A stretch of 60,544 bases of DNA from a virus. Positions 18,149-45,054 of this stretch are shown piece by piece; position 1 is the first letter of the stretch; each line of letters opens with the position of its first letter. The notes beneath the pieces are model-generated. The model did not search any database and was not told the origin of the DNA. It was given only the letters and a program-made list of their open reading frames with translations. The position numbers and the translations under genes are program-made. The DNA lies in the IMG/VR virus record IMGVR_UViG_3300027908_000020, positions 1-60,544 of that record; one strand, given 5' to 3'.

Positions 18149-18523
18149 ATGAAAAGAAATAAGTCCCCTAAGAAAGTTGAAACGGAAGTAAAGACCTCTG
18201 GCCCGCCAGAGATGGATTGGTCATATTTTTCTCCACTTGAAGTGAAAGTTTATGGTAATTTTGATAAGGCATTCAAGGCATTTAGAGCTTTAGTTCAGTC
18301 AGAAAAGATTCTTTCTTTATACAAAGAGAAGCAATCATATGAAAAGCCATCCGAGAAGCGTCGCCGCAAGCATAGCGAGTCTATCAAGCGCACCCTTGAA
18401 CTTCAAACGAAACAAAAGAAGATTTTGTCCGGCGAATATGAGAAAGAAAAAATCAAAAAGCAGGCCGAAAAAGATAAGCGCAAAAGAGAACGCAATACTA
18501 AAAGCGATTCAGATTTAGGATAA
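18149..18523 (+). CDS. rpsU: 30S ribosomal protein bS21 with N- and C-terminal extensions
   Basis: VKVYGNFDKAFKAFRALVQSEKILSLYKEKQSYEKPSEKRRRK. Confidence 0.85.
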   Translation: MKRNKSPKKVETEVKTSGPPEMDWSYFSPLEVKVYGNFDKAFKAFRALVQSEKILSLYKEKQSYEKPSEKRRRKHSESIKRTLELQTKQKKILSGEYEKEKIKKQAEKDKRKRERNTKSDSDLG

Positions 18524-18531
18524 GGTAAGCA

Positions 18532-19023
18532 ATGGCTGGAGATAAAGAATTAGATCGAGAAGCGGCAGACGTAATTAAAAATCCTACAAGATCAGCACCA
18601 CCAGTTCGTTCCAGATATGAACCGGAGTATGTCAGATTGAATAAAGATCCGGTTTTTCAGCCTTCTGAAATGTATGCTTCCGTCGACGATGTACCTTTTG
18701 ATGAAGATGGTGATGTGGTAGATGTCCGAAGCGGACACATTATTGATAATAATGATTTTGTGAACTTTGGGTCGCAACCTTCCCCACTACCAGCTCGACG
18801 TGAGGAACCGGCCAAAGAAACATCGACACCAGAAATTGGTGAATATATATTGATGGTACTTGGTAAATTAATATCATTAGGCTCGCTTGAGATGATTGAA
18901 AAACGTGTTAAGGGAATTATCTATGGTGAGGACCTATCCTTTAAAGGGCTAGAAGTTGGACTAGATGATATCGTGGTTCTCAAGCGAGTTGCCCTTAAAA
19001 TTGGAGTATTTATAGATGGCTGA
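18532..19023 (+). CDS. Hypothetical protein
   Basis: 163-aa ORF with TAAGGT SD. Confidence 0.65.
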   Translation: MAGDKELDREAADVIKNPTRSAPPVRSRYEPEYVRLNKDPVFQPSEMYASVDDVPFDEDGDVVDVRSGHIIDNNDFVNFGSQPSPLPARREEPAKETSTPEIGEYILMVLGKLISLGSLEMIEKRVKGIIYGEDLSFKGLEVGLDDIVVLKRVALKIGVFIDG

Positions 19024-19678
19024 TCAACCAAGAAAAGCCTCTGAGGTCGTTGTATCGATTGAAGATAAAGTTAATACTATTATTCAATCGATGAGCGTAT
19101 ACAATATGAACATCAAGTTAATTCTAGATCGTGTAAATAAGATATATAATTATATTGAACAAGGAAATGCTCAGGCACCAGAAACCCAGGTTGTTGGTCC
19201 TACTGTACCTCCCACACCACAATCAGATAAAGAAATTGTTCAAACATCTGCTGAACACGTCTTAACGGTGGCAGAAGAGCCATCATCCCTTAGACGTACA
19301 GCTCGTTCTGAGTCATATACGTCACCAAAGCCAGAACCACCAATTCAGGATATACATAGGAAGTCAGATCAGCCTGGTAGTTCGGAAAAGAAAGTTCCTG
19401 TCGTACAAAGAATAACAGATAGCAAGGGCAAAGATTTATTTATGGCTTATGTAAGTATCATGAATGACCAAAAAGAAGTTATACAAAAAACTAAGACAAA
19501 TGCTAATGGTAAATGGCAAGCTCATCTAAAACCTGGCAAATATTTTGTTGAAGTGATGAAAACTGATACGGCCACGAAAGAAGAAATCAAGGCCATGCAG
19601 GAATTATCTATCCCTAATGCAGACTCTGTTGTTACACTCCCAACTGCTATAATTAAAAGGCCTAAAGAGGCTTTGTAA
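19016..19678 (+). CDS. Hypothetical protein with C-terminal prealbumin/CnaB-like beta-sandwich
   Basis: ITDSKGK..., KTKTNANGKW..HLKPGKYFVEV. Confidence 0.55.
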   Translation: MADQPRKASEVVVSIEDKVNTIIQSMSVYNMNIKLILDRVNKIYNYIEQGNAQAPETQVVGPTVPPTPQSDKEIVQTSAEHVLTVAEEPSSLRRTARSESYTSPKPEPPIQDIHRKSDQPGSSEKKVPVVQRITDSKGKDLFMAYVSIMNDQKEVIQKTKTNANGKWQAHLKPGKYFVEVMKTDTATKEEIKAMQELSIPNADSVVTLPTAIIKRPKEAL

Positions 19679-20007
19679 TGGATGGGTATGAAATTCAAGA
19701 TATTATCAACCGATTTGAAGCTATGGAACACCTGTTTGATGTTCAAGTTCATCTAAACCGTGAGATGGCAAATATTTTGGCAGAACTGGATGCTATGCCA
19801 GATATACCTGATATTGATGACTGGGTATCTTCTATATTAGACTTAGAAGCCAAAGGATTCAAGCTTCAGAATTTTAGAAGAATGTTCGAAATTAATAGAC
19901 AATATAACACAATAGTAGAAGAAAAAGATAAAACTGCTAGCCAAATTAAAGTTATCGTTATTGACAACTTGCTTGATAAAATTAAAGATGTACTAGATAA
20001 AGAATGA
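19678..20007 (+). CDS. Hypothetical protein
   Basis: 109-aa ORF with coupled stop/start. Confidence 0.6.
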   Translation: MDGYEIQDIINRFEAMEHLFDVQVHLNREMANILAELDAMPDIPDIDDWVSSILDLEAKGFKLQNFRRMFEINRQYNTIVEEKDKTASQIKVIVIDNLLDKIKDVLDKE

Positions 20008-20666
20008 AATTCCAAATTATTGTAGCAGATCCCCCGTGGAGCCTTTCTGACCAATTAAAAATGTCCTCTGTAAAACGGGGCTCCGCTGCAAATTATAATG
20101 TTATGACGGTGAAAGACATTTCTGCTTTACCCGTGGCCGATTTAGCCGATCCTAAAGGATGTGTACTTGCTTTATGGGTTCTTGGATCTATGTTAGAGGA
20201 GGGTATGACCGTAATGACCGATTGGGGCTTCACGCAGAAACAAGTCTTTGTGTGGGTTAAAACTAAGAAAAGATCTTCAGTAACCGATCTTTTGATACAT
20301 AATGCTATAAATTGGTTCGAAAATTTCATACCAGAGCAACTACTCGCGTTTGGGATGGGGCGTCTGTTTAGACAGACCCATGAAATTTGTTTGATCGGAA
20401 TCAATAATACGAAGATATATAGAAAATTACAGGACAAATCACAACGCTCAGTTTGCTTCGACGTTAATCAAGGTCATTCCATAAAGCCAGAAGCTTTGCA
20501 GGATAGACTAGAAATTATGTTTCCAGGCACACAAAGACTAGAAATGTTTTCAAGACGTAAGAGAGAAGGATGGGTTAATGTAGGTGATGAGGTATCAAAA
20601 GAAGATATTCTAACATCTATCTCTAAACTAAAGTTACTAAATGAAAAAGGTACTGCTACTAAATAA
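20004..20666 (+). CDS. MT-A70 family N6-adenine methyltransferase
   Basis: IIVADPPW, YNVMT, LALWV, WGF...FVWVK, GMG..FRQTHE, HSIKPE, LEMFSR..REGW. Confidence 0.9.
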   Translation: MKFQIIVADPPWSLSDQLKMSSVKRGSAANYNVMTVKDISALPVADLADPKGCVLALWVLGSMLEEGMTVMTDWGFTQKQVFVWVKTKKRSSVTDLLIHNAINWFENFIPEQLLAFGMGRLFRQTHEICLIGINNTKIYRKLQDKSQRSVCFDVNQGHSIKPEALQDRLEIMFPGTQRLEMFSRRKREGWVNVGDEVSKEDILTSISKLKLLNEKGTATK

Positions 20667-21156
20667 CACTTACGAAGTCCTTTCGTTCATTTCTGAACGA
20701 AAGGCTATTAAGCTTGTATGTAAGGACAAAGTTGATATAGTTGCAACTTGGCCAGATGTACAGATCCGTTTTGGTGGCAAAACTGTCAATTTTCCGTCCA
20801 TACTTCGTCTACGATATTACGTTAGAAAGAAGTATTCTCAACTCTCATTTTCAAGAAAAGCAGTTTTTAAACGAGATAGGTTTACTTGTCAGTACTGCTC
20901 AAAACTCTTAAAGTCCGGTCAGGTAACAGTAGACCACGTTATACCTAAAAGTATAGGTGGTCAATCGTCCTTTACCAATTGCGTTACTGCATGCTATAGC
21001 TGCAACAATCGCAAAGGTAGTAGAACACCTGAAGGCGCTAGTATGGAACTTATCAACAAGCCGGTCGCTCCAGCAGGATATATGCACTATATATCTGAAA
21101 ACGATCACTGGCATGCTGATTGGGATAAATTTTTCGGTGGCGAGAGAAAATTCTAA
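20641..21156 (+). CDS. HNH endonuclease (McrA-like)
   Basis: LLLNNTYE, PSILRL, RDRFTCQYC, TVDHVIPKSIGG, NCVTACYSCNNRKG. Confidence 0.9.
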   Translation: MKKVLLLNNTYEVLSFISERKAIKLVCKDKVDIVATWPDVQIRFGGKTVNFPSILRLRYYVRKKYSQLSFSRKAVFKRDRFTCQYCSKLLKSGQVTVDHVIPKSIGGQSSFTNCVTACYSCNNRKGSRTPEGASMELINKPVAPAGYMHYISENDHWHADWDKFFGGERKF

Positions 21157-21237
21157 TCCGAAATAACCAATATCTTAATATATAAATATAAATTGTTGAA
21201 TAGACAATTTTTTAAAGCCTTCAAAGGAGGTGATCTA

Positions 21238-21327
21238 ATGGCAAAGAAATCAACCAGCTCAAAATCCAAATCAAGCAAGTCTTCAAAGAAGTCTTCAGTG
21301 AAAAAGGGAAAAAAGAGCAGCAAATAA
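21238..21327 (+). CDS. 29-aa Lys/Ser-rich basic peptide (histone-tail/protamine-like); absent from the ORF track
   Basis: MAKKSTSSKSKSSKSSKKSSVKKGKKSSK; SD AAAGGAGGTGATC at 21223-21235; tandem TAA stops; terminator downstream. Confidence 0.8.
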   Translation: MAKKSTSSKSKSSKSSKKSSVKKGKKSSK

Positions 21328-21346
21328 TAAATCTTAAGTGATTTTT

Positions 21347-21384
21347 AAGCGTGGTTCTCTAGCGGGAGCCACGCTTTTTATTTT
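21347..21384 (+). terminator. Rho-independent terminator
   Basis: AAGCGTGGTTCTC-TAGC-GGGAGCCACGCTT 13-bp stem (two G-U pairs) followed by TTTATTTT. Confidence 0.85.
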
Positions 21385-21427
21385 CGGGCATAATATAGGA
21401 TAGATATATAGATCCATAAGGTCCGAA

Positions 21428-22030
21428 ATGGTAAAGAATTATCCAGATAATTGCATAGTATGTGCCAACGAATTCAATACCGAAGAACTATTCTCAGTTT
21501 GTGCAGACGCTAATTATAAAATTTGTATTAAGTGTCTAGCTAAGTCGGACCCACAGGATGATTTTGCACAAGTTAGAAATATCGTTTCGAAGTATGTAAA
21601 ATTCTCCCAGATGGATGCTGAGTTGGCATCACCTGACATAAAGGTCGAACCTGGGGATACTTACATTCAAAAGGCGGTAGAACTTCTCAAGCGTATGAAT
21701 CCTAGTTATTTTGTAGGAGTACGCAAGATTGTAGCTGACATGGGTAAAGGATTAGGGCATGTAGCGTCCGGTCCTGGTCAAGACTCAGCCGTTATACATA
21801 TCAATCTTTCTCGTATCAAATCTGAGCTTCAAGCGAAACTTCCAAATGCCCCGCAAAATCAATTCGAGAAGGAATTTGTTCGCCAAATAGCCCTTACGAT
21901 TGCGCACGAAAAAGGGCACGTAGGGTCGTTTAAGCAAGAGTCCGGATTCGTAGGTGGTGAGTCGCCTGCCGAGTCAGAAGAATCGTCTATGATGGGAAAA
22001 GTAGATACGTATTACAATACTCTAAAATAA
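21428..22030 (+). CDS. Hypothetical protein with N-terminal Cys cluster and HExxH zincin-like motif
   Basis: CIVC...CIKC; TIAHEKGH followed by ESPAE. Confidence 0.6.
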   Translation: MVKNYPDNCIVCANEFNTEELFSVCADANYKICIKCLAKSDPQDDFAQVRNIVSKYVKFSQMDAELASPDIKVEPGDTYIQKAVELLKRMNPSYFVGVRKIVADMGKGLGHVASGPGQDSAVIHINLSRIKSELQAKLPNAPQNQFEKEFVRQIALTIAHEKGHVGSFKQESGFVGGESPAESEESSMMGKVDTYYNTLK

Positions 22031-22177
22031 CTCAATAATTGTAATGTTCTTATTTTCTTCTTCTTTGTTTTTCTTTTCTAAAATTTCAAAATCTTTTTCG
22101 ATGTATAGAGGAATTTGTACTGGTTTAGTTTTTTCTTTCTTAATTATTTTATGAATGAAAGGGATATATAAACTCAT
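22022..22177 (-). CDS. 51-aa hypothetical protein; absent from the ORF track
   Basis: MSLYIPFIHK...QIPLYIE...ITIIELF with GAGGA SD; fills an otherwise empty gap. Confidence 0.55.
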   Translation of the reverse strand: MSLYIPFIHKIIKKEKTKPVQIPLYIEKDFEILEKKNKEEENKNITIIELF

Positions 22178-22221
22178 GCTTTCCTCACTTATATTATAGC
22201 AAATTATTGATGGAGTAATTT

Positions 22222-22437
22222 ATGTTTTGTCCCAGCTGTGCTAAGTTATCGATTTTAGTAACCAAACGAACCTGTATAAGATGCAAAGGTGAGATACTTA
22301 ATAATATTTCTTGTATTTGCGAGAACTGCGCTAAAGAGAAAAAAGTATGCTCAGTATGTCTTAAAAAATTATCAATAGATCAAAATGGACAAAATAAATT
22401 TAGAGTAAAGCCTTCTTGCCGTAGCTGTAGAAAGTGA
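22222..22437 (+). CDS. Cys-rich zinc-binding protein (CRIPT-like Cys spacing)
   Basis: MFCPSC...CIRCK-x10-CENCA-x5-CSVCLKK...CRSC; GGAG SD. Confidence 0.7.
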   Translation: MFCPSCAKLSILVTKRTCIRCKGEILNNISCICENCAKEKKVCSVCLKKLSIDQNGQNKFRVKPSCRSCRK

Positions 22438-22451
22438 TATATTGTCTAGGG

Positions 22452-22997
22452 ATGATTATTACTAATAATGAAGAAGCTCTTCGCGTTAAATGTGAAGATG
22501 TTAAGCCAGAGGAAGTTGGCGAGCTTATAGCTCTGTTAGAGCAAGAGCTAGAGCATTCAGCCAAGCTTGGTAGGCCAGGAATAGGTCTTGCCGCACCCCA
22601 AATAGGTATTGCCAAAGATATTGCTATTGTGCGGATTGATAATGTGTACAGAGTCGATCTTATCAACTGTAAAATTAAAGAACAATATGATCAAGCAATT
22701 TTCAAGGAGGAAGGCTGCTTATCTTTTCCAGGACGAATCGAAGATACGCTCAGGTACCAAGAAATTTACGTCGTTAATAATTTAGTTGCCCCACACTCCT
22801 TTCAAGCTGCCGGTCTGATGGCTGTTGTGTGCCAACATGAGCTTGATCATATTAACGGAATTCTCTTACCAGACATGGCAATTAAAAAATCAGTAGGAGC
22901 AAAACGCAAAACAGGTCCAAACGATCCATGCTTCTGCGGAAAAATTGATCCCATCACGAATAAACCAAAAAAGTATAAAAAATGCTGTGGAATATGA
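22452..22997 (+). CDS. def: Peptide deformylase with C-terminal SEC-C motif
   Basis: GIGLAAPQIG, EGCLS, QHELDH; GPNDPCFCG...KKYKKCCG. Confidence 0.93.
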   Translation: MIITNNEEALRVKCEDVKPEEVGELIALLEQELEHSAKLGRPGIGLAAPQIGIAKDIAIVRIDNVYRVDLINCKIKEQYDQAIFKEEGCLSFPGRIEDTLRYQEIYVVNNLVAPHSFQAAGLMAVVCQHELDHINGILLPDMAIKKSVGAKRKTGPNDPCFCGKIDPITNKPKKYKKCCGI

Positions 22998-23013
22998 TAT
23001 ATGAGGTCCGAAA

Positions 23014-23253
23014 ATGGTTGATGAAAAGACAAAATCGAATAGTTTAACTGATCAAGATTATTTATTAGCTGAAGTTGTCGTTAAGGTTGCAGCTCTTGAA
23101 AGAATTTTGATTAAAGCTGGAATTACAAATTCAGAAGATCTTGTAGAAGAGATGAGAAAGATTTCGCAGGAAGTTATAACCTTCATGTCGTCCTTCGGCT
23201 CTAAGTCTGTAGAAAATATATTTGCACCGGACATAGATAAAAAGAAGAACTAA
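23014..23253 (+). CDS. Hypothetical protein
   Basis: GAGGT SD; 79 aa. Confidence 0.65.
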   Translation: MVDEKTKSNSLTDQDYLLAEVVVKVAALERILIKAGITNSEDLVEEMRKISQEVITFMSSFGSKSVENIFAPDIDKKKN

Positions 23254-23546
23254 TGCTATTTCTAACATCTGATAAAGAATTCAAAGTAAATAATACTCCA
23301 ATTGTTTATTTCTTTTCTTCTGAAATGGTTTATCCTTTAGTAAAAACTGTATTTTCTTTACTTAATTTAATCGAACAAAATTATAATATAAGTGTTCTTT
23401 GCGTAGATGTAGACAGATTCAAAAATATTTCAAAACGAACCCAAATAACTGAGTTACCAACTTTTCTCATCTACAAGGGTGGAAAAGAAATTAAAAGAAT
23501 TACTGGTATGCCAAATTTTGACGACATGAAAAATATTTTTGAGTGA
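23253..23546 (+). CDS. Thioredoxin-fold protein lacking CxxC
   Basis: VDVD, ELPTFLIYKGGKEIKRITG; no WCxxC. Confidence 0.65.
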   Translation: MLFLTSDKEFKVNNTPIVYFFSSEMVYPLVKTVFSLLNLIEQNYNISVLCVDVDRFKNISKRTQITELPTFLIYKGGKEIKRITGMPNFDDMKNIFE

Positions 23547-23577
23547 GATATATATTGTATAGCAAGACGGAGATAAA

Positions 23578-23892
23578 ATGACTAACGAAAACGAAAAGAA
23601 GACACCAGAAGTTTCAGAACAACCAGCAGTTACAAGTCCAGCGGTTCCACCTACTGAGGCTGATTTGATTTGGGCCGAGATAAAGAACAAGCCAATCATG
23701 ATGTTCTCTCTGCCAGGCCAGAAGGTTTCTGATTATTGTAGGCCAGCACCAATCGATCCTACACGATGCTTTTTGCTTTATAAAGCAGGATCTGCTATAC
23801 CAGCTATCGAAGAGGCTGTGGGTTCAAAGTACTCATGTGAAGGCGTGGAAAAGTACATTATTGTATCGAGAAAAAAGCCAAATGCCTTTTGA
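23578..23892 (+). CDS. Hypothetical protein
   Basis: GGAG SD; 104 aa. Confidence 0.65.
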   Translation: MTNENEKKTPEVSEQPAVTSPAVPPTEADLIWAEIKNKPIMMFSLPGQKVSDYCRPAPIDPTRCFLLYKAGSAIPAIEEAVGSKYSCEGVEKYIIVSRKKPNAF

Positions 23893-24331: not shown

Positions 24332-24334
24332 TTT

Positions 24335-24505
24335 ATGATTACCAAAGATAAAATTCTGGATTTGATTTCTGAAGAGAAGGAAAGATATAGTACATATTCC
24401 CAGCTATGTTCCCACTACAAAGTAACCCCGGACCCGCTAGTATTGGCGAAGCATTCATCCAAGATCGAGACGCTGGATCTAATGATAAAGATTCAAAAGT
24501 CTTAA
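24335..24505 (+). CDS. 56-aa hypothetical protein; absent from the ORF track
   Basis: MITKDKILDLISEEKERY...; starts 3 nt after the previous stop and overlaps the next ORF. Confidence 0.45.
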   Translation: MITKDKILDLISEEKERYSTYSQLCSHYKVTPDPLVLAKHSSKIETLDLMIKIQKS

Positions 24506-25011
24506 TTAGAAAAGCAAATTCTGTAGATATTGTCTCAATATTTAGACAGTATGATCTTAAGATTGATGAGTACTTAACCAAATGTTTTTGTCCTTTTCCT
24601 TTCCACAGAGAAAGAACAGCATCTTTCAAGTATTATAAAGATACTAACAGCTTCTATTGTTTTGGCTGTAAGAGTGGAGGAGGCCCCGTAGAGTTTGTAG
24701 CACTCATAAGAAATGAGTCAAAAGATAAATCTGCGGCTCGAATTCTATCTAGATTTGATATAGATCCAACACAAGAAATCGCTTCAGATCATGCTGACTT
24801 CGTCAGCAGGCAACAGCTGTTTCTTGAGTTTTCAACATTGATTAGAAATTTCATATCGGACAACTTAGACGATAAATCCGCAGTTGACTACTGTGAAAAG
24901 GTGAGTCTGATATTTGACACAATCAACTTCAAGCATAATCTTGATAATGATGGACTAAAGTCTCTAATCTCTAAGTTGAAAATTAAGTTGGATCAATATA
25001 AATGTCAATAA
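24406..25011 (+). CDS. Stand-alone DnaG-type CHC2 zinc-binding domain protein
   Basis: VDIVSIF, CPFPFHRERTASF, FYCFGCKSGGGPVEFV; no TOPRIM domain. Confidence 0.85.
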   Translation: MFPLQSNPGPASIGEAFIQDRDAGSNDKDSKVLIRKANSVDIVSIFRQYDLKIDEYLTKCFCPFPFHRERTASFKYYKDTNSFYCFGCKSGGGPVEFVALIRNESKDKSAARILSRFDIDPTQEIASDHADFVSRQQLFLEFSTLIRNFISDNLDDKSAVDYCEKVSLIFDTINFKHNLDNDGLKSLISKLKIKLDQYKCQ

Positions 25012-25537: not shown

Positions 25538-25540
25538 GTA

Positions 25541-32494: not shown

Positions 32495-33736
32495 ATGAAT
32501 ATTACGATGGAAGAAATAGAATATTGTAAGGTTGACGTTCACTATGAGTCAGATATTGAAACTATTATCTCGAAAAGAAGTGAAGTTGTAGCGAAATTTA
32601 AGGATGTTGCTGTACCAGGATTTAGGCTCGGACATGCTTCTCCCGAAGTTCTAAAAATCTATTTTAGAAAAGAGATAGACGAAGCTCTTCAGAAAGAGCT
32701 TGCTAATGATGCAGTTCAAAATACAATTTTCGAAAAAGGTATAAAGCCATTTGGGTACCCACAATTTAAATCCATTCATCTGGAAGGTAACAAATTCAAT
32801 TGTGATTTTACATTACATGTACAGCCAGCGTTTGAACTTCAACAGTATAAGGATTTTGAAATTCCTAAGCCAGCTGAAAAGATGAATGCGGTTGAGTTAG
32901 CGCAAAAAATTCTTCAAGATCTAAGAGTTAGATATGGCGAGACAACTCCATATGGAGAAAATGATTTTGTCCAAATTGGGGATAACGTGGTTATTAATTA
33001 TAATGGCACCGTTGATGAGCAGCCGGTTGACAGGCTTACGGCTTCTGGTGAACTTGTACAAGTTGGTAAAACGCCAATACCAGGATTCGATGATAACCTT
33101 CTCGGTATGAAGACCGGCGAAGAACGAGTTTTCTCATTAGTTATGCCTGCTGAGGTTACTGATAGTTTGGCCGGGAAAAATGTTACATTCAATGTAAAAC
33201 TTATCTTAGGATCAAAGGTTCAACCAGCACCATTGGATGATAGTTTAGCAAAGAAGGTTGGTTTTGAAAGTTTTGAAATCATGATGAACCATGCTAGCAG
33301 TACAGCTTCAAACAGGGTTCAGGAAACCACACGTAACCAGATTATGGATCAAGTATCTAAAAGATTGATAACTAATCATGAATTTAAAATTCCACATTGG
33401 ATTTCTTCGGCAGAAGCTCAAATGAGCGCCAAGAATAATGGAGAGAATTGGGAAGTTCTTTCTGATGTCCAAAAAGAAAGATATCTAGAGCACGCCGATA
33501 ATAGCATCAAACTATCTTTAGTCTTAGCAAAAATACGTGATGTGGAGCCAGAGGCTCAGCTAAGTGATGAAGAAGTATTTAAGATAGCAAAAGAGAATAT
33601 ATCTAAATTCTCGGATAAGCCTGAGGAAGTATTTGAAGGCATGTTTAAAAATGGGCATCTTCCAATTCTTTTTAACAGAATCAGAGACGAGAACACATTA
33701 GGCTTCATACAGAAGCATTGTACAATAATTGAATAA
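32495..33736 (+). CDS. tig: Trigger factor
   Basis: VPGFRLGHAS ribosome-binding loop, GDNVVINYNG, IPGFDDNLLGMKTGEE, LAGKNVTFNVK; full three-domain length. Confidence 0.9.
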   Translation: MNITMEEIEYCKVDVHYESDIETIISKRSEVVAKFKDVAVPGFRLGHASPEVLKIYFRKEIDEALQKELANDAVQNTIFEKGIKPFGYPQFKSIHLEGNKFNCDFTLHVQPAFELQQYKDFEIPKPAEKMNAVELAQKILQDLRVRYGETTPYGENDFVQIGDNVVINYNGTVDEQPVDRLTASGELVQVGKTPIPGFDDNLLGMKTGEERVFSLVMPAEVTDSLAGKNVTFNVKLILGSKVQPAPLDDSLAKKVGFESFEIMMNHASSTASNRVQETTRNQIMDQVSKRLITNHEFKIPHWISSAEAQMSAKNNGENWEVLSDVQKERYLEHADNSIKLSLVLAKIRDVEPEAQLSDEEVFKIAKENISKFSDKPEEVFEGMFKNGHLPILFNRIRDENTLGFIQKHCTIIE

Positions 33737-33744: not shown

Positions 33745-34026
33745 ATGAGTAAGACTATTTTTCCAGATAAGTATCGTAAAAAAATTGAACCAGAGTTTCT
33801 AGATAATGTTAATGCTATGGATACAGAAGAGATTAAGAAAAGACTTCTGGAGCAAGAATCTGCTGTTTATGACGCAGAAAACGAAAAAGAAGAGGATAAG
33901 GAATTAACCGAGGCTCGTGAAAAGGTTAAGGAATTTTCAAAACCTTACAGAGAGAAGAAGGCACAAGCAACTGCAAAAATTAAATATTGCATGTTTGTGC
34001 TGGAAAATCGGGGAGTTAATCTTTGA
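33745..34026 (+). CDS. Hypothetical coiled-coil protein
   Basis: GAGG SD; 93 aa. Confidence 0.65.
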   Translation: MSKTIFPDKYRKKIEPEFLDNVNAMDTEEIKKRLLEQESAVYDAENEKEEDKELTEAREKVKEFSKPYREKKAQATAKIKYCMFVLENRGVNL

Positions 34027-34313
34027 CGGAAATCAAAAAAATTGTAACAAAGTCATGTTCAGCCTGCTCCAAGGGCCAAATATTATTACAATTTGATTTT
34101 CCGCTAGATATAGCACATAAACAATTTTTTGCGGATTCTAAGTTTATAGAATCGAAAGCCTATGCAGACCGGGGTATATTGTATGTGGAAGATGCTAATC
34201 TTGTCGCCATGGGGCCTTTTGGTTCTAATCGATTAAATATAAGATGTAAAACGAATTCTTGTGATGACAGCGTAGCAATTGTGGAAGGGATACTTCGGAA
34301 CATAAAAGGATAA
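34023..34313 (+). CDS. Hypothetical protein
   Basis: TTG start after GGGAG; CSAC. Confidence 0.6.
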   Translation: MTEIKKIVTKSCSACSKGQILLQFDFPLDIAHKQFFADSKFIESKAYADRGILYVEDANLVAMGPFGSNRLNIRCKTNSCDDSVAIVEGILRNIKG

Positions 34314-34315
34314 TT

Positions 34316-34987
34316 GTGAAAAAATGTACTTCTTGTCAAATAGAGAAGGAATTTTCTGAATTTCGATTTAGAAAGGATCGAAATTCTTATATTGCAATTT
34401 GTCGGGTATGTGAAGCTTTTAAAAAAGCAGAGTATGCTAAAACCCATAAGCCACAACAAGCTATCTCAAGACATCTTTATTATTTAAATAATAAAGATAA
34501 AGAAAGAGAAAATAATAAAAAGTGGTTATTAGATAATAAATCTGAGAGGGCAAAGTATCATACTGAATATGAAAAGAAAAGAAAAGAGATAGACCCGTCG
34601 TTTAGAATTAGAGTTTCTGTATCAAAATTAATAAATAATTATTTTATATTAAATGGTCTAACGAAAGGTAATCTGTCTTTTTTAAAATTTGTTGGTTGGA
34701 ATTTAGAAGAATTGAAACAACATTTAGAGTCTCTTTTTGAGCCATGGATGAGTTGGAATAATTGGGGCAAATATAATCCAAAAGAATGGGATGATAACAA
34801 TACGTCTACATGGACATGGAACATAGATCATATAGTCCCACATTCAACATTTAAATATTCCTCAATGGAGGATGATGATTTTAAGAAATGTTGGGCTTTA
34901 AGTAATTTAAGACCTTTAAGTTCAAAACAAAATTTGCTTGATGGCTCTAAACGAACGAGGCACCAAAATGTCAATAAAGGACGTTAG
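34316..34987 (+). CDS. Putative HNH-type homing endonuclease (paralogue of 31768-32493)
   Basis: CTSC/CRVC, LESLFEPWMSWNNWG, WNIDHIVP, CWALSNLRPL..KQN. Confidence 0.75.
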   Translation: MKKCTSCQIEKEFSEFRFRKDRNSYIAICRVCEAFKKAEYAKTHKPQQAISRHLYYLNNKDKERENNKKWLLDNKSERAKYHTEYEKKRKEIDPSFRIRVSVSKLINNYFILNGLTKGNLSFLKFVGWNLEELKQHLESLFEPWMSWNNWGKYNPKEWDDNNTSTWTWNIDHIVPHSTFKYSSMEDDDFKKCWALSNLRPLSSKQNLLDGSKRTRHQNVNKGR

Positions 34988-35621
34988 AAATCAATCATAT
35001 GATTATGAATTAATTGCCATGTCTTATCATGAGGCAGGTCATGCCATTTGTGCTTTAAGCAATTTCTTACAAGTCATTGATGTAAGTGTAATGACGCCCA
35101 AAACTAATATGGGGTACACTAATTGGTATATTTATGATGCCAATGATGTGAAAGATGAGGATTTGCGTAAAGTTCTTTTTATAGCTGAGGTTCAAGCACT
35201 CTATGCGGGGCTCTTAGCTGAAAAAATGTATTATAAAGATATCTGTGGCTCTGATGATTTTCCCATGCATTTGAGGGCTGGTTCATCAGAGGATACTACT
35301 ACGGCATCTTCTATAATAAGAAAAAATAATCTAGCCAAGTCTGGTAGACAAACTCATTTGTTCAAAAAACAAATGAAATGTGATGTTGAAGAATTTCTTC
35401 AAGAACATTGGGAAGAAGTAAAAATAGTTGCCCATGCTCTATACAAGAAGACGAGACTGTCACATGACGAACTCAAGTACCTACTAACCAGAAAGACCGA
35501 GTATAGGGATTTCTGGAAAGATAAGTTTAAGAAACTCAAGATCATACACAATGATAAAACTCCCCCACTGGAGGAAACTGTCAAAGACATAGTTCTTGAA
35601 AATGTAATATATAGTATATAA
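34968..35621 (+). CDS. Stand-alone M41 (FtsH-type) zinc peptidase domain
   Basis: SYHEAGHAI, AGLLAE, GSSED, VAHALYKKTRLS. Confidence 0.75.
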   Translation: MSIKDVRNQSYDYELIAMSYHEAGHAICALSNFLQVIDVSVMTPKTNMGYTNWYIYDANDVKDEDLRKVLFIAEVQALYAGLLAEKMYYKDICGSDDFPMHLRAGSSEDTTTASSIIRKNNLAKSGRQTHLFKKQMKCDVEEFLQEHWEEVKIVAHALYKKTRLSHDELKYLLTRKTEYRDFWKDKFKKLKIIHNDKTPPLEETVKDIVLENVIYSI

Positions 35622-39220: not shown

Positions 39221-39234
39221 TATATACTATCGGT

Positions 39235-39399
39235 ATGAGATACTGCCCCAAATGCCTTGAAGATAAGCATGATGATGAATTTTCATCAGCAAAAGCTCGT
39301 TGGTGTAAGGCTTGCAAAAAAGAATATGATTCTAATCGTTTCATTCAAAATAGAGAAACTATTTTAGATGGTGTAACTAAAATAAGGCATAAAGGATAA
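39235..39399 (+). pseudogene. Internally deleted mini homing endonuclease (54 aa); absent from the ORF track
   Basis: CPKC..K...EF...CKAC N-terminus joined directly to LDGVTKIRHKG, which resembles the C-termini of the two intact HNH genes. Confidence 0.6.
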
Positions 39400-39410
39400 A
39401 TAGGAATAAT

Positions 39411-40067
39411 ATGCGCTGTAAATCATGTAAGGAAGATGTACCGCCTAAGTTCGTACATGCTATTTCGGTAAATGTTTGTCCGTTATGCGGACAAGAGATT
39501 ATGGATGCGAAATTGCAGTCAATTTTGAACGATCTTAAGTCTGCGATGGATAAAGCATCAGAATACTCTGAAGAGTCAGCTGATTGGCTATTCTCTAATT
39601 ACGGGCTGAAGAAGTGGGACCCAAATCAAATAAATAATGAAGCTTATTTTCAGGGAGGAAGCATTCTAACACCCACTCATCCAAAGCAGCAACTGCCAGG
39701 TTTTAGGTCCCCATCACCTGTTCGTCGTTCCGAGGATGAGGACTCAGATATGGAAGTGGAATCACCCGCTGAAGAAGTATCTATATTTGCCAAACGGGCT
39801 GGTCTCAAACCTTCAAATTTTAAGAAAGTTATAGAGCATATACAGGGTGCAGCGGATCCAACTGCATTCCACGGTCAAGACGATGAGTATGGCGAATTGG
39901 AGGGCATTGAGGAGCCATCTGCCCCTCTTGACGCCAGAGGCAAGAAGGAAATAATGTCAATCTTTAAAGAAGATGATGCCAAATCATTAGAACTTGAGAA
40001 ACTTAAAAAGTTCAGGTCGCAGGCCTCTGTCGCCGGGAATGGTGGCAAATTTTGGCGCTCATCATAG
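39411..40067 (+). CDS. Hypothetical protein with N-terminal zinc ribbon
   Basis: CKSC...CPLCG; AGGA SD. Confidence 0.65.
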   Translation: MRCKSCKEDVPPKFVHAISVNVCPLCGQEIMDAKLQSILNDLKSAMDKASEYSEESADWLFSNYGLKKWDPNQINNEAYFQGGSILTPTHPKQQLPGFRSPSPVRRSEDEDSDMEVESPAEEVSIFAKRAGLKPSNFKKVIEHIQGAADPTAFHGQDDEYGELEGIEEPSAPLDARGKKEIMSIFKEDDAKSLELEKLKKFRSQASVAGNGGKFWRSS

Positions 40068-40077
40068 GTAGGTTAAT

Positions 40078-40422
40078 ATGGGCATTAAAATAATCGATAA
40101 TAAAAAAGTCGAAATGACCGAAACCGAAATTAGTATGTATCGAGATATTTGTAGATCTTATGATCGCCCAAATTTCAAAGGAGAAGATCTTTTCAAAGAT
40201 CTTTTTGAGACCGATGAACTAGGAAGAATTGTATATTTAAAGCCCCCATCTACCAGGCATACAAGTATGGAAGTTTTTTTATTTGTTGCAATTTTGATGC
40301 AGCATCAGCACATCAGATCTATGCACTTTCAGGTATCTAATATGTGTAAGCAAATGCAAGAAAAAATGAATGAATTAGACGCTCTAATGAGCTCAGTAAA
40401 AAAAGAAAAAGAAGCCGAGTAG
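40078..40422 (+). CDS. Hypothetical protein
   Basis: 114-aa ORF. Confidence 0.65.
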   Translation: MGIKIIDNKKVEMTETEISMYRDICRSYDRPNFKGEDLFKDLFETDELGRIVYLKPPSTRHTSMEVFLFVAILMQHQHIRSMHFQVSNMCKQMQEKMNELDALMSSVKKEKEAE

Positions 40423-40490
40423 TAAGTCGATATAAGCCGTTCAACACGCAAAAGTAGATGCGTGATTCTAGATGAACAAAAGAAGATAAA

Positions 40491-40913
40491 ATGAGTACGA
40501 ACAAAGCAGAATTTGAAGAATTAGTTGAGAAGTGTTTTGCTGAATTGAAAGCAGCCTCTCAAGACAAGTACGAAACGGATAAAGCCGAAAGAACGGCAGC
40601 TCTGTTTTTGCAAGCGCAAATGAAGCTTGCATTCTTTATTGAAGATATTGAAAGCGCTGCGCGCCATTCCAAATCTTTTATTGATAAAATTGAATCAGAC
40701 AAATACTTTGAAATCAAAGATGCGGCCGTTGGTAAAAAAATTACCGAAGCAGCTATGGAACATTCTGTAGCTCATGACCCTGTTGTCGTAGAGGCTAAAA
40801 AGGCTAACTCTAACGCAGAATCTGAGTTAAGGAAATACAATTATCTTATGGCTTCTCTAAAGGAAGGTCATATCTTTTTCCGTGGTATGGGCCGTAAAAG
40901 TTACATGGAATAA
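40491..40913 (+). CDS. Helical protein, possibly a UvsY-like recombination mediator
   Basis: KKITEAAMEHSVAHDP helical pattern, about 140 aa, directly upstream of recA. Confidence 0.4.
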   Translation: MSTNKAEFEELVEKCFAELKAASQDKYETDKAERTAALFLQAQMKLAFFIEDIESAARHSKSFIDKIESDKYFEIKDAAVGKKITEAAMEHSVAHDPVVVEAKKANSNAESELRKYNYLMASLKEGHIFFRGMGRKSYME

Positions 40914-40920
40914 ATAGTAA

Positions 40921-41910
40921 ATGGAGAATGCAATGACTAAGCAAGCAGCGAAAACAGAATTAGGAAAGATAGACATAAATAAACTAGTGAGAGCAGCTCA
41001 AGAATCATATTCCAAAAAGGAAGCGGGATTAGCCAATCAACTATCTACAGGCAAGGGTCTCGTAAGACCAACGGAAGATAAAGACTTCGTACTATGGACT
41101 GGTGGCGATCACTGGTATCAGTTGACCCATCTCAAAGGAATTCCGTTCGGACGTATTATAGAAATCTCCGGTAAACCAGATTCAGGTAAGAGTACCCACG
41201 CGATGGCATTCATGAAATTCGCCCAAGATCAAGGAGTGCTTGTTGTTCTATGGGATGCAGAGAAGAAATTCTCACCATCAAGATTCGACAACAAGATTGG
41301 TGGTTGCTCAGACAATTTACTTGTTGTAAATACTAATAACATTCTAAATGGAGCAAAAGCTGTTGCCCACCTTGTTAATTCAGCCAAAGAATTAAACCCA
41401 GATGTAAAGATTCTAATTGTTTGGGATAGTGTTGGGGCATCCGTAAACTCAACCGAAGATAAAGATGATAGTGAGGATTATTCACAGCAACCAGGTGTTA
41501 CAGCAAAGGAAAATGCTTATACCATAAGAAAGTTCAACAAGTTAATCAACAAGTTTACAAACAGAGAAACTGGTGAAGAAACTGTTGCAGTTCTAGTTAT
41601 CAATCAGACATACGTTAATATTGGAAGCGTTGGCCAAACAGAGAAGGGCGGAGGCGAAATATATTACCTCTCTAGTGTAATTGTTCAGCTTTCTCGAAAG
41701 CAAGATTTGAACCGTGTAAAAGCTGGCGAGAAATACAAATATGGTATCGTAACCAGAGCCAAAGTTAAGAAGAATCATTTGTTTGATGGTGATGAGTGCA
41801 TTGCAGAAATGGATTTGGTTGTTTCGGCAGATGGTATTCATCTTGCAAAAGATGTAAAGAACTTCGACGATATCAAAGGCTGGAGTGCCAGCGAGGAAGA
41901 GGGAGAATAA
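40921..41910 (+). CDS. recA: RecA/UvsX-like recombinase
   Basis: GIPFGRIIEISGKPDSGKST, WDAE, VWDSVGA, INQ, GG, VKKNH. Confidence 0.9.
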   Translation: MENAMTKQAAKTELGKIDINKLVRAAQESYSKKEAGLANQLSTGKGLVRPTEDKDFVLWTGGDHWYQLTHLKGIPFGRIIEISGKPDSGKSTHAMAFMKFAQDQGVLVVLWDAEKKFSPSRFDNKIGGCSDNLLVVNTNNILNGAKAVAHLVNSAKELNPDVKILIVWDSVGASVNSTEDKDDSEDYSQQPGVTAKENAYTIRKFNKLINKFTNRETGEETVAVLVINQTYVNIGSVGQTEKGGGEIYYLSSVIVQLSRKQDLNRVKAGEKYKYGIVTRAKVKKNHLFDGDECIAEMDLVVSADGIHLAKDVKNFDDIKGWSASEEEGE

Positions 41911-41911
41911 T

Positions 41912-42238
41912 ATGCCTGATTTAACAATAAAACCGGCGTCATCGGTAGATGATCAAGGTGTACTTAGAATGCCAGAAATTAGAACTGGCAAAATAGTACC
42001 AACATATCTGGTAACAATAGAAGCAGGGAAGAAAGAACTACATTTCATTGCTACAAAATTTGATGAAACAAATACTTGTGGTAAATTCGTTGGTTTCTAT
42101 TGTACTGCAACAGAGGAAAAGATTGTCAGCAGCTACGATGAGATTATTAAAAGTACTGATAAGACAAACTATGTCGAGATCCAGATTCCATGGAACAGAA
42201 TACTGAGTGTACGCAGTTTGCTATACAAGCACAAATAG
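41912..42238 (+). CDS. Hypothetical protein
   Basis: GGAG SD before ATG 41912. Confidence 0.6.
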   Translation: MPDLTIKPASSVDDQGVLRMPEIRTGKIVPTYLVTIEAGKKELHFIATKFDETNTCGKFVGFYCTATEEKIVSSYDEIIKSTDKTNYVEIQIPWNRILSVRSLLYKHK

Positions 42239-42247
42239 GAGATTAAA

Positions 42248-42580
42248 ATGGCAAGAATGAATAGAAGAAACGTAAGAACAGCTAACAGAGTCGCAAGAAT
42301 GAACATTGATCGGGATCTTATCGAGACCATTCAAACTAGAATTCAGACTCTTCTAGGTCGCAGAAATGGTTCATGGAATGGTACCATGACTGAACTCAAC
42401 CAAGCGATTACATCAGGATTAAGAAGGGCTACGCCAACTAACTGGCCAAAGACACCAAGCGTGTTGCGACGAGTTATCAACAGCGTAGTACCTGCTTTGA
42501 GAAGATCTGGTGTGCGAGTCCAGTTTGGCCGCACAACCGATCATTCAAGGACCCGTTTTGTTAGTTTTACACAAAACTAA
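42248..42580 (+). CDS. Basic protein, probable winged-helix DNA-binding domain
   Basis: WNGTMTEL...WPKTPSVL...VPALRRSGVRVQFGR; AGGAG SD. Confidence 0.55.
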   Translation: MARMNRRNVRTANRVARMNIDRDLIETIQTRIQTLLGRRNGSWNGTMTELNQAITSGLRRATPTNWPKTPSVLRRVINSVVPALRRSGVRVQFGRTTDHSRTRFVSFTQN

Positions 42581-42636
42581 TACGTACTAGTAGTTAGATT
42601 CAAAAATAGTACACAGAAAATAAATAGGAGAATAAT

Positions 42637-43323
42637 ATGAATAAATATGGTGAACAGTCTTGGACTGATGTAGTTCTAAATTCGTCAGAAAAGAAAAACA
42701 GCAAAGATCTATTTTTGCGTTTGAACCCAGGCTCTAACGTCGTAAGGTTGCTTACCCTTCCATACGCTTATTATCAGCACAAGCATATGATAGATGGTGG
42801 GAAAAAGTTCGGATACAGAATCAACTGTTCCGATCCTGAGCACCGTACTAGTTGCCCAGTTTGTGAAAAGGGCGAGGATAAGGCCAAGCGTAGGTGGTTT
42901 CTTGGTGTAATCGATCGTAAGAACGATGCATACAAGATACTTGATATCGGTTTCTCTGTCTTCAAGGCAATTCAAACGCTTGCCAAAGATGATGACTGGG
43001 GCGATCCAAGTAGATATGATATCGATATTGTGGTCGATCCACATGGAGGTGCAACCGGTTACTACACAGTAGTAGCCAAGCCACCAAAGCCATTATCTGC
43101 TAGTGATTTGGTAAAGCGCGAAGAGAACAGCACGGAAGAGATTGCTCGTAGAGCAAGCCCTCCAACCCGTGAAAAGGTTCAAGAGAGATTGGACAAGATA
43201 ATGGAAGAAATCAATTCCGGCTCAAGTTCGTCCTCAGCTTCAGCTTCTGAAGAAGACTCAACAACTGATAGTGAGGAAGAATTTCCTGACTATGATAACA
43301 AGACCAAGAAAGCTCCTTTCTAA
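42637..43323 (+). CDS. Single-stranded DNA-binding protein (T4 gp32-like)
   Basis: FLRL..G.NVVRLL, H...C...CPVC, VIDR, WGDP..YDI, acidic Ser-rich tail ending in PF. Confidence 0.75.
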   Translation: MNKYGEQSWTDVVLNSSEKKNSKDLFLRLNPGSNVVRLLTLPYAYYQHKHMIDGGKKFGYRINCSDPEHRTSCPVCEKGEDKAKRRWFLGVIDRKNDAYKILDIGFSVFKAIQTLAKDDDWGDPSRYDIDIVVDPHGGATGYYTVVAKPPKPLSASDLVKREENSTEEIARRASPPTREKVQERLDKIMEEINSGSSSSSASASEEDSTTDSEEEFPDYDNKTKKAPF

Positions 43324-43357
43324 TCTTTTACCCTAGAGCTTAGTTTCCGCTGAGCAG

Positions 43358-43399
43358 CAAAAGAGATGTATTCTATACGAGTACATCTCTTTTGTTTTT
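43358..43399 (+). terminator. Rho-independent terminator
   Basis: 16-bp stem CAAAAGAGATGTATTC / GAGTACATCTCTTTTG with TATAC loop, then TTTTT. Confidence 0.8.
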
Positions 43400-43429
43400 A
43401 TAGTGCGATATATATCCAATAAAGGATAT

Positions 43430-44041
43430 ATGGCAATAATTCTGGGTCTAGACATATCTACTACATGTATAGGGTGGTCAGTTATACAATATAAAAACCT
43501 TACCTATAATCTTATAGGTATAGGTTATTTTGAACCGATTAAAAACGTATCTAATGTTTTTGATGCGCATCCAAAGAAATTAAAAGATTTGGATAGCTTA
43601 GAGTTTCTTGATATGATCCAAATGTCAAAAAATATGATAACAGAATTACTTAGGAAGTACAACCCAGATAAAGTGTGTATAGAAGATTATATAAGATACA
43701 TGGCTGGTGGTTCCGGCGCAAATACGATTATACCATTAGCATGTTTAAATAGATCTATTTGTTCCTTAGTGTATGAATATTTTGATTTTGATAAAAAAAG
43801 AGTTTCTATTTGCAATGTCATGTCGATACGATCGCTAATTAAAAAATCTGCTAAATTATCGGAGCTGCCAAAAAAAGAAGAGCTGCCCCCAATTCTAGAA
43901 AAATTAATGGGTATTAAAGTGCCTATTCTATTGGAAGAATCTAAAAGAAACAAATCAAAGATATCTTCATTTACATATGACCAGTCAGATAGTATAGCTT
44001 GTTCGTATTACATTACTGCAAACAATAAAGAAAATAAATGA
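43430..44041 (+). CDS. RuvC-like Holliday junction resolvase
   Basis: ILGLDISTTCIGW, PDKVCIED, DQSDSIA. Confidence 0.75.
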   Translation: MAIILGLDISTTCIGWSVIQYKNLTYNLIGIGYFEPIKNVSNVFDAHPKKLKDLDSLEFLDMIQMSKNMITELLRKYNPDKVCIEDYIRYMAGGSGANTIIPLACLNRSICSLVYEYFDFDKKRVSICNVMSIRSLIKKSAKLSELPKKEELPPILEKLMGIKVPILLEESKRNKSKISSFTYDQSDSIACSYYITANNKENK

Positions 44042-45054
44042 ATAAAGTTGATGAAGCATTTAATATCTTGGGATTACCTCGTTCGGTACCAGAGGATGAG
44101 TTAAAAGCAAAATATAAAGAACTCGCTAAAAAGTTTCATCCCGATGTGTACAAGGAAGACCCAGAGAAGTTTAAAAAAATAAATGAAGCCTACCAGCTTA
44201 TTCAAGATTACAAAGCAAATCCATCCAAGTATGAGCGCAAACAGTTTCAACAAAATGATGTTGGTTTCCAGTATAACGAGATAAATCTACAAGATTTATT
44301 TAATAATTTTCATAATAATTTTACTACCGAAGATAATGAGGGCCCACGAAGAAGTCCAAATATTTCCGCTCCACCACCAACCATTAATATAAATATTTCT
44401 TTCAAAGAATCAATATTAGGTAATGAGAAACAAATAACGTATAAGAGATATTTGAAATGTACGATATGTAATGGTATTGGATTAGAATATGTTAATAACG
44501 GATGCCAATCTTGTAACGGATTTGGAAGAATTGTAGCCAATAACAAAGGAATGGTATTTTCTAAAGTTTGTACTAAATGTTATGGAAAAAATATCAAAAA
44601 GAATAAATGCTCGAACTGTAATGTTAAAGGTGTTATGGAGAATGATGTTGCAGGCACAGTTCAAATTCCCCCGGGCATTGTCAACGGAACAACTCTTCGT
44701 CTTGCCGCAGCTGGTCACTACATGGGTAATTCATTATTTGGAGATTCTTATGGCGATGTGTTTATACGAGTAACTGTAGATAAGGATCTTGAGCTTGAGT
44801 TAATGGGGTCAGATGTTGTAAGTCATGTAAATCTATCTTTACTCGATGCACTTATCGGATCCCATCAAGAAATAAAAACAGTACATGGTACCAGAAATAT
44901 AGCGATCCCAGCACTCACTAAAAACAAAGATGAATTGCGAATCCAAGATTGTGGTGTCAAAGGAACAACTGGGGTCCAAAGGGTTATATTAGATGTAAGG
45001 TATCCAGATGATACTAAAGCTCTTGTGGAGTGGTTAAAGAATAGTCAGAACTAG
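44038..45054 (+). CDS. dnaJ: DnaJ chaperone (class A-like)
   Basis: FHPD J-domain, KINEAY, four CxxCxG-type repeats, IPPG..G..LRL, GDVF. Confidence 0.92.
   Translation: MNKVDEAFNILGLPRSVPEDELKAKYKELAKKFHPDVYKEDPEKFKKINEAYQLIQDYKANPSKYERKQFQQNDVGFQYNEINLQDLFNNFHNNFTTEDNEGPRRSPNISAPPPTININISFKESILGNEKQITYKRYLKCTICNGIGLEYVNNGCQSCNGFGRIVANNKGMVFSKVCTKCYGKNIKKNKCSNCNVKGVMENDVAGTVQIPPGIVNGTTLRLAAAGHYMGNSLFGDSYGDVFIRVTVDKDLELELMGSDVVSHVNLSLLDALIGSHQEIKTVHGTRNIAIPALTKNKDELRIQDCGVKGTTGVQRVILDVRYPDDTKALVEWLKNSQN

Follow-up and report, generated by a model that had tools for sequence, protein, structure and literature searches.

A conserved set of predicted co-translational maturation and folding factors in uncultured giant tailed phages

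The stretch of viral DNA analyzed here (the window, 60,544 bp) comprises bases 1 to 60544 of a 150,580-bp IMG/VR record, IMGVR_UViG_3300027908_000020, and encodes on its plus strand homologues of four bacterial factors that act on proteins during or after their synthesis: ribosomal protein bS21 (124 amino acids, positions 18149 to 18523), peptide deformylase (PDF; 181 amino acids, 22452 to 22997), trigger factor (TF; 413 amino acids, 32495 to 33736), and a DnaJ-type J-domain cochaperone (338 amino acids, 44038 to 45054). A ClpR/ClpP gene pair and a stand-alone M41 protease domain lie in the same window. The original prediction, made from the DNA letters alone, read these genes as a toolkit with which a phage supplements or replaces the host's path from translation initiation to protein degradation, and proposed to look for their co-occurrence in related genomes. 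To that end we compared the window record with 11 related IMG/VR records, giving a set of 12, of which 7 are at least 95% complete and 361 to 459 kb long, and found bS21, PDF, TF, and DnaJ in every one of the 12. The window record itself has a CheckV completeness of 35%, which for 150,580 bp implies a full genome of about 430 kb.

The trigger factor shows the three-domain architecture of its bacterial namesakes: the N-terminal ribosome-binding domain (Trigger_N), the FKBP-type domain (FKBP_C), and the C-terminal arm domain (Trigger_C) each exceed the Pfam gathering score. With 199.2 bits against 180.2 it also clears the equivalog cut-off of TIGR00115, and it aligns end to end with Escherichia coli TF (1W26; E 3e-21), GFR loop included, which bears out the full-length TF with a GFR loop that had been recognized at position 32495. 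An AlphaFold2 model built on a 56-sequence alignment (predicted local distance difference test [pLDDT], 93.9) gives a predicted fold that Foldseek matches to ribosome-bound E. coli TF (2VRH) with template modeling scores of 0.75/0.72 over 429 columns. The loop reads VPGFRxGK in the window protein, and positions G42 and R44 do not vary among the 56 family members. Architecture, length, and the position of the GFR loop in the N-domain are thus those of E. coli Tig (1W26, 2VRH), whereas the phage TF is only 21 to 27% identical to any bacterial TF, falls in a deep clade of its own, and lacks the tig-clpP-clpX operon context.

How common this protein is depends on where one looks. At least 120 relatives share 44 to 80% identity with it, all of them about 413 amino acids long and many on contigs of 350 to 500 kb, and an exhaustive, profile-free search returned 149 phage-type TF clusters (at 50% identity) with E values below 1e-30, followed by a long tail of ordinary bacterial TFs. 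Scanning IMG/VR with the single TF query recovered one locus, and with a 20-sequence alignment 29 loci; the same TF neighborhood recurs at these 29 loci and on two long metagenome contigs. Of the 185,579 prokaryote species genomes of GTDB (one genome per species), none yielded a phage-type TF, and the closest bacterial TFs reached 23 to 27% identity. The GenBank phage collection gave only weak TF matches, most of which look like bacterial fragments, and PHROGs holds a TF-like family labeled "unknown function". We found no paper on jumbo, huge, or Caudoviricetes phages that treats TF as a phage gene. The expectation that TF is rare in phages therefore holds for described phages and fails for metagenomes, where about 149 clusters exist. 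The suggestion that the gene would form a phage-specific clade was upheld by a maximum-likelihood tree of 72 TFs, in which 47 phage-type sequences form one clade (Shimodaira-Hasegawa-like approximate likelihood ratio test support, 100; stem, 0.95 substitutions per site) apart from 24 bacterial TFs; a borderline database match, P0280, groups with the latter. This tree came from a quick search over bacterial sequences chosen by motif match, a biased sample, so that it speaks to the separateness of the phage clade and names no donor; for the same reason, the bacterial TFs recovered (Armatimonadota, Chloroflexota, Acidobacteriota) give no indication of the host. Directly downstream of the TF gene lie two small open reading frames (ORFs) of 93 and 96 amino acids (33745 to 34313) whose position is kept in nearly all relatives; they are without family matches, have ratios of nonsynonymous to synonymous substitution rates (dN/dS) of 0.07 and 0.10, and could encode TF-associated partners.

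The PDF (PF01327, E 2e-27; 96.4 bits against 22.8 required by Pfam) was likewise read correctly at position 22452 as a deformylase linked to a SEC-C tail: the motifs GIGLAAPQ, EGCLS, and HELDH are all readable, and the protein ends in NDPCFCG...KKYKKCCG, a Cys4 motif of the SEC-C (SecA) type that contains a 7-amino-acid insert. The Pfam scan made no SEC-C (PF02810) call on the window's own protein; PF02810 is recorded on syntenic orthologues and on about half of the at least 120 PDF relatives. From its sequence, the protein is a divergent deformylase with a replaced C terminus, and its tail, by motif match, a putative metal-binding motif. In SecA the SEC-C motif binds SecB, and it has been reported to contact ribosomes. 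A literature search turned up no description of a PDF-SEC-C fusion.

PDF action at the exit tunnel is followed in bacteria by removal of the initiator methionine, and an enzyme for this step is encoded elsewhere in the genomes of the relatives. All eight near-complete relatives carry a Peptidase_M24 protein (PF00557) of 268 to 285 amino acids, and that of relative G008 scores above the equivalog cut-off for type I methionine aminopeptidase (MAP; TIGR00500, 209.9 bits against 171.35). MAP is absent from the 150-kb fragment that holds the window, which represents about one-third of the genome; since the relatives have the gene and only this third has been recovered, the window phage probably has one as well. 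With MAP in all eight near-complete relatives, the clade possesses the bacterial exit-tunnel trio of PDF, MAP, and TF. As with TF, we found no paper that reports MAP as a phage gene.

At the initiation end, the bS21 homologue was an accurate call at position 18149: an intact plus-strand ORF scoring above both the Pfam (PF01165, E 2e-14; 53.4 bits against 27) and the NCBIfam cut-offs (TIGR00030, 43.9 bits against 28.95). It carries a basic/aromatic N-terminal extension of about 34 amino acids and a Lys/Glu-rich C-terminal extension. Directly upstream on the same strand lies a classical-clade AAA+ ATPase (446 amino acids, 16765 to 18105; PF00004, E 2e-16) whose top sequence match in the Protein Data Bank (PDB) is Bacillus subtilis YjoB (7W42, E 5e-36). 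It keeps its Walker A and B motifs, is 50 to 56% identical to its counterparts in seven of eight relatives, and is a candidate unfoldase or chaperone.

The DnaJ gene at position 44038, also as predicted, is an intact plus-strand ORF with an HPD-bearing J domain (PF00226, E 6e-13; 49.1 bits against 27.8) and a DnaJ_C region that exceeds its Pfam gathering score (PF01556, E 9e-23). Measured against a type I DnaJ, it has the HPD J domain and lacks both the Gly/Phe linker and the full complement of four CxxCxGxG repeats, two canonical repeats being conserved and the others degenerate. Its expected partners are missing from the relatives: we found no Hsp70, no Cpn60/GroEL, and no clear Clp unfoldase in the five near-complete relatives searched for them, and no GrpE or SecB in the eight near-complete relatives searched. 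Weak AAA_2 matches were considered as Clp unfoldases and rejected, because they are 370-amino-acid proteins without ClpX or ClpA identity. With no Hsp70, GrpE, or Clp unfoldase in the relatives, DnaJ and ClpP/ClpR would have to use host partners.

Proteolysis is represented by two further plus-strand loci. A ClpR-like, catalytically dead ClpP paralogue of 194 amino acids (7752 to 8336; PF00574, E 3e-46) overlaps at its end the start of a ClpP proteolytic subunit of 186 amino acids (8329 to 8889; PF00574, E 5e-53). Aligned with ClpP 6MX2, ClpR has exchanged Ser for Tyr, His for Ser, and Asp for Gln, and the triad is lost in all six pair-bearing genomes aligned; ClpP keeps its Ser-His-Asp triad, in comparison with 3Q7H and in all relatives. 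ClpP occurs in 10 of the 12 records and the tandem pair in 8. By analogy with the cyanobacterial and plastid ClpP/ClpR cores and actinobacterial ClpP1P2, which the tandem of an active and a triad-less gene resembles, the two products may form a hetero-oligomeric ring; the difference is that this pair is phage encoded and that no cognate unfoldase gene was recognized nearby. Following ClpP, where phage G has ClpX, is a conserved protein of 497 amino acids (8924 to 10417) without a P-loop and without a match in Pfam, PHROGs, NCBIfam, or the ESM Atlas, whose Atlas model has a pLDDT of 0.48. The second locus encodes a 226-amino-acid zinc metalloprotease domain of the FtsH-type M41 family (34941 to 35621; PF01434, 31.2 bits, just over the gathering score of 29.9) with the zinc-site motif HEAGH; H22, E23, H26, and E86 do not vary in 42 sequences, and D110 is invariant as well. 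Its 65 relatives (clusters) are all 179 to 238 amino acids long. The window protein has neither an AAA+ domain nor a membrane part, and its size together with these absences makes it a stand-alone M41 domain and not an FtsH. The protein had no PDB sequence match and was placed by fold search alone, in which its AlphaFold2 model (pLDDT, 93.7), a predicted fold, matched the protease domains of FtsH, YME1, and AFG3L2 best (probability, 1.0). Between the 96-amino-acid ORF and the M41 gene, and overlapping the start of the latter, lies an HNH-type ORF (223 amino acids, 34316 to 34987) that no relative has at this place; where a relative has a best match at all, it lies elsewhere, and the ORF probably encodes a mobile homing endonuclease. 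The prediction that ClpP/ClpR and M41 belong to the set was thus right about the genes and wrong about the place of one of them, the Clp pair lying outside the interval from 18149 to 45054 to which the toolkit had been assigned.

The evidence that these genes belong to the phage lineage, and are not passengers, comes from their conservation. A block of about 40 kb is collinear between the window and eight relative genomes that were independently assembled from different samples. Its order runs from ClpR-ClpP through an FtsK-like gene, topoisomerase, the AAA+ gene, bS21, MT-A70, PDF, Trx, DnaG-Zn, SbcD, and SbcC, and continues with a dNMP kinase, a PD-(D/E)XK gene, TF, the two small ORFs, M41, the DNA polymerase III α subunit (PolIII alpha), and RecA-like, SSB-like, and RuvC-like genes to DnaJ. 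Within the block, identities are 57 to 66% for bS21, 52 to 67% for PDF, and 34 to 51% for TF (DnaJ, 33 to 49% across the clade), next to 57 to 62% for PolIII alpha, 46 to 53% for topoisomerase, and 46 to 56% for SbcD, so toolkit and replication genes have diverged about as much. The functional residues are conserved across nine genomes, namely the TF loop, the three PDF motifs, the four SEC-C cysteines, the HPD tripeptide, the ClpP triad, the HExxH motif, and Walker A and B. Estimates of dN/dS, taken from one moderately close genome pair (dS about 0.9 to 1.3) because most other pairs are saturated, were 0.105 for TF, 0.124 for PDF, and 0.168 for M41, the reference values being 0.062 (PolIII alpha), 0.097 (RecA), and 0.128 (SbcD). 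These comparisons support the view that the toolkit consists of syntenic, vertically inherited core genes under purifying selection. A recent capture from a host, free of purifying selection, had been named as something that would overturn the prediction; collinearity in eight genomes, dN/dS values of about 0.1 to 0.17, and the intact motifs speak strongly against it. Other translation and chaperone genes are sporadic, with elongation-factor-type GTPases in two of seven relatives, IF3 in three of nine, and HSP20 in three of seven.

Two features of the block concern its replication genes. The RecA-like gene (40921 to 41910) has orthologues of 48 to 67% identity in G002 and G007 only; in the other six genomes the same syntenic slot holds a RecA-family protein of about 390 amino acids that is 24 to 27% identical, which suggests that one recombinase was exchanged for a non-orthologous one. 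Also kept across the clade is a free-standing CHC2 zinc-ribbon protein of the DnaG type (201 amino acids, 24406 to 25011).

That the genome is that of a tailed phage is evident from its structural genes. The terminase noted earlier was confirmed as a large terminase subunit (TerL; 57332 to 60238; phrog_675, E 2e-51), and just beyond the window edge the record encodes a portal (phrog_16240, 2e-52) and the domain of a head-maturation protease, together with a major capsid protein (phrog_2522, 1e-77) sharing 54.7% identity with gp27 of Bacillus phage G. The 150-kb record is 96% coding, 132 of its 145 ORFs lie on the plus strand, and no tRNA genes were found across it. Bacillus phage G is thus the closest cultured relative, and the window phage belongs to a clade of uncultured giant tailed phages of about 350 to 460 kb that are relatives of phage G. 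The capsid protein is the sole link to phage G in our searches of GenBank phages, where TF, PolIII alpha, TerL, and an ORF of 581 amino acids found nothing closer than about 30%. The clade carrying the toolkit is large and globally distributed.

Several further observations touch on these genomes. The terminase has 968 amino acids and a LAGLIDADG_3 domain at residues ~402 to 452, between the ATPase segments, which is probably an intein or a homing-endonuclease insert. A gene resembling tRNA nucleotidyltransferase (54312 to 55217; phrog_2244, E 2e-15) lies within the head-gene region of this record without tRNA genes. IMG/VR classes 4 of the 11 relatives (G002, G003, G004, and G006) as "provirus", and all 4 are collinear with the rest; G006 has an EF-G-like gene (695 amino acids) about 6 kb from the record end and G002 an EF-Tu-like gene (389 amino acids), which may be sporadic phage genes or host flanks and are a possible clue to the host. 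Shine-Dalgarno use is only moderate and gave no host assignment. Relative G008, at 452 kb, carries direct terminal repeats.

Set against described phages, the toolkit combines familiar parts with others that have gone unreported. Huge phages of more than 200 kb encode bS21 with basic/aromatic N-terminal extensions as well as PDF, genes that have been read as a means to redirect host translation or to keep it going (Al-Shayeb et al., 2020, PMC7162821), and a catalytically intact cyanophage PDF is thought to sustain protein maturation during infection (Frank et al., 2013, PMC3660681); the premise that bS21 and PDF are each known from phages is therefore sound. The main text of Al-Shayeb et al. 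mentions no trigger factor, chaperone, DnaJ, or Clp (PMC7162821), whereas the present set, while sharing bS21 and PDF, is centered on the exit tunnel (PDF, MAP, and TF). A 485-kb phage from that study, whose capsid protein is 36% identical, has of the toolkit only DnaJ. Unlike the cyanophage enzyme, the PDF described here bears a SEC-C tail, is a core gene, and is accompanied by MAP and TF. Large-phage J-proteins with an HPD motif are presumed to recruit Hsp70, and DnaJ and DnaK have been described in moraphages (PMC12619734); full-length DnaJ homologues also occur in Lak phages and in phages of 595 to 642 kb. Some moraphages also encode DnaK and bear signs of recent transfer from Flavobacteriales (PMC12619734), whereas the present clade has an old, core DnaJ without Hsp70 or GrpE. 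On Hodor megaplasmids, TF adjoins SecYEG (PMC12934698).

Phage G (Donellivirus gee, JN638751) shares with the present clade a related capsid, a genome of about 0.5 Mb, a DnaE-type polymerase, and ClpP. We found no TF, PDF, bS21, or DnaJ in its genome, and it has a single ClpP followed by ClpX (PMC12484599), in contrast to the ClpR-ClpP pair followed by an unrelated protein of 497 amino acids seen here. Because phage G lacks these four genes and the 485-kb phage has DnaJ only, the toolkit defines an uncultured sister clade. In phage G, the DnaE-type polymerase (239329 to 249237) matches the window PolIII alpha in five pieces over about 10 kb, probably reflecting inteins, introns, or a split gene.

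On balance, we lean toward the view that the phage supplies its own factors for co- and post-translational maturation, which would provide extra or phage-tuned capacity during infection. Under such a scheme, bS21 with its basic tails would join the host 30S subunit at the mRNA/anti-Shine-Dalgarno platform; PDF, held near the exit tunnel by the SecA-type zinc tail that replaces the usual C-terminal helix, would remove the N-formyl group, and the type I MAP encoded elsewhere in near-complete relatives would remove Met1; TF would dock on the ribosome via its GFRxGK loop and cradle the nascent chain; DnaJ would pass clients to host DnaK, since the phage has no Hsp70; and the ClpP/ClpR ring, the M41 domain, and the AAA+ ATPase would remove or remodel failed or unwanted proteins. 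The benefit would likely lie in the large burst of virion proteins, which calls for capsid subunits by the thousand and for individual proteins as long as about 2,300 residues. What the analysis shows is the identity of the genes, their intact motifs and predicted folds, their conservation and synteny across the clade, the purifying selection on them, and the absence of host-type partners from the relatives searched; that the factors dock on the ribosome, act in this order, favor phage clients, and benefit the phage we infer from these results. A bolder extension, which we regard as speculative and rather unlikely, is that bS21 at the mRNA platform and an exit-site complex of TF, MAP, and zinc-tethered PDF customize ribosomes to prefer phage proteins; if true, this would mean that a virus reshapes the bacterial ribosome at both of its ends, and it would introduce a new way of bringing PDF to the ribosome.

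Several findings weigh against this account or narrow it. The TF family consensus, VPGFRxGK(A/G), lacks the Pro found in the canonical GFRxGxxP, which makes docking on the ribosome less than certain. Three of the proteins, PDF, DnaJ, and ClpP, stay below NCBIfam equivalog cut-offs (for PDF, TIGR00079 at 90 bits against 103.95; for DnaJ, TIGR02349 at 213 bits against 377). We know of no role for SEC-C on a PDF, and the motif is also a SecB-binding element. The DnaJ linker (residues 60 to 115) is rich in N, Q, F, and P, with two Gly only and no Gly-rich run, and the zinc-finger region scores 21.4 bits against PF00684, under the gathering score of 32.7. The degradation arm is not universal, since neither ClpR/ClpP nor the AAA+ gene is present in G001, and in G007 ClpP occurs singly and M41 gave no match. 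Finally, the genes are scattered over about 37 kb of the replication block and do not form an operon, which leaves co-regulation unproven and does not sustain the idea of a single coordinated pipeline from initiation to degradation. Nor can the toolkit replace the host pipeline, as the original prediction allowed: with no Hsp70 or GroEL and no clear Clp unfoldase in five near-complete relatives, and no GrpE or SecB in eight, it would supplement the host.

An alternative is that the toolkit works away from the ribosome, with TF serving capsid, tail, or giant proteins post-translationally as a holdase or an assembly chaperone and with DnaJ, ClpP/ClpR, and M41 processing virion parts or being packaged with them. 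Such assembly activity of TF is known, and the fold search with our model also retrieved the Thermotoga TF complexes 3GTY and 3GU0. The head module follows directly downstream of the toolkit block, and possible clients on the contig include several proteins longer than 1,300 amino acids, the largest ORFs being 1,950 and 2,307 amino acids. The Hodor megaplasmid study proposes TF as a giant-protein chaperone (PMC12934698), and the presence of phage G ClpP and ClpX in virions (PMC12484599) hints at assembly and not quality control, a further point against the account we favor. We nevertheless consider an off-ribosome role improbable, because the G-F-R-x-x-K residues of the TF loop are among the family's most conserved positions, which a purely off-ribosome role would not require, because PDF and MAP act on nascent N termini only and bS21 is a ribosomal protein, and because the genome already has a separate head-maturation protease domain. 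Comparable standing, as a minority possibility, goes to takeover or counter-defense, in which the phage copies replace host factors inactivated or depleted in a long infection or act as decoys, for instance with DnaJ diverting DnaK or blunting DnaJ-dependent sensors and with ClpP/ClpR and M41 degrading defense or housekeeping proteins. Precedents are cited in one study (PMC12619734): phage sensing by bNACHT25 needs host DnaJ, SecB-type chaperones control antiphage toxin-antitoxin-chaperone (TAC) systems (also the subject of a TAC preprint), and the J-protein of phage RB43 reportedly acts on DnaK and sigma32. The role of SEC-C as a SecB-binding element, established for SecA, would fit, as would the fact that the phage carries only client-selecting or catalytic parts (DnaJ, ClpP/ClpR) and none of the host motors. 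Decoys, however, usually lose catalytic residues, whereas here the PDF metal ligands, ClpP triad, HEXXH, and HPD are kept, and the low dN/dS where measured (PDF, TF, and M41) also speaks against them; counter-defense genes are typically variable and accessory, whereas the toolkit genes form a collinear core.

It might also be argued that the contig is bacterial or derives from a megaplasmid, that it is an assembly chimera, or that the genes are a functionless recent capture; a chimera or a bacterial chromosome had been listed among the outcomes that would undo the prediction. TF, DnaJ, ClpP, and PDF are indeed typical of cells, some relatives carry the "provirus" label, and many GenBank "phage" records matching TF are evidently bacterial fragments. 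Against this stand the terminase, portal, head protease, and phage G-like capsid protein on the same contig, its dense and nearly one-stranded coding, a gene order common to eight independent assemblies (one with terminal repeats), the lack of any bacterial genome with a close TF, and purifying selection on the toolkit genes, and we therefore give an artifact of any of these kinds hardly any credence.

Phages are usually assumed to borrow the maturation and folding machinery of their hosts, and the known exceptions are single items, namely bS21, cyanophage PDF, GroES-like cochaperonins, and isolated J-proteins. The conserved set described here spans deformylation, Met excision, co-translational chaperoning, Hsp70 targeting, and proteolysis, and on present sequence evidence appears to extend the translation repertoire of huge phages to a conserved co-translational maturation and folding set. 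For annotation, it explains "provirus" or cellular flags on phage contigs of this kind. The clade also offers a deeply divergent, compact TF family and a PDF with a seemingly swapped anchor for studies of how the exit site is shared. If the role we favor is correct, the toolkit would show that co-translational maturation can limit viral fitness.

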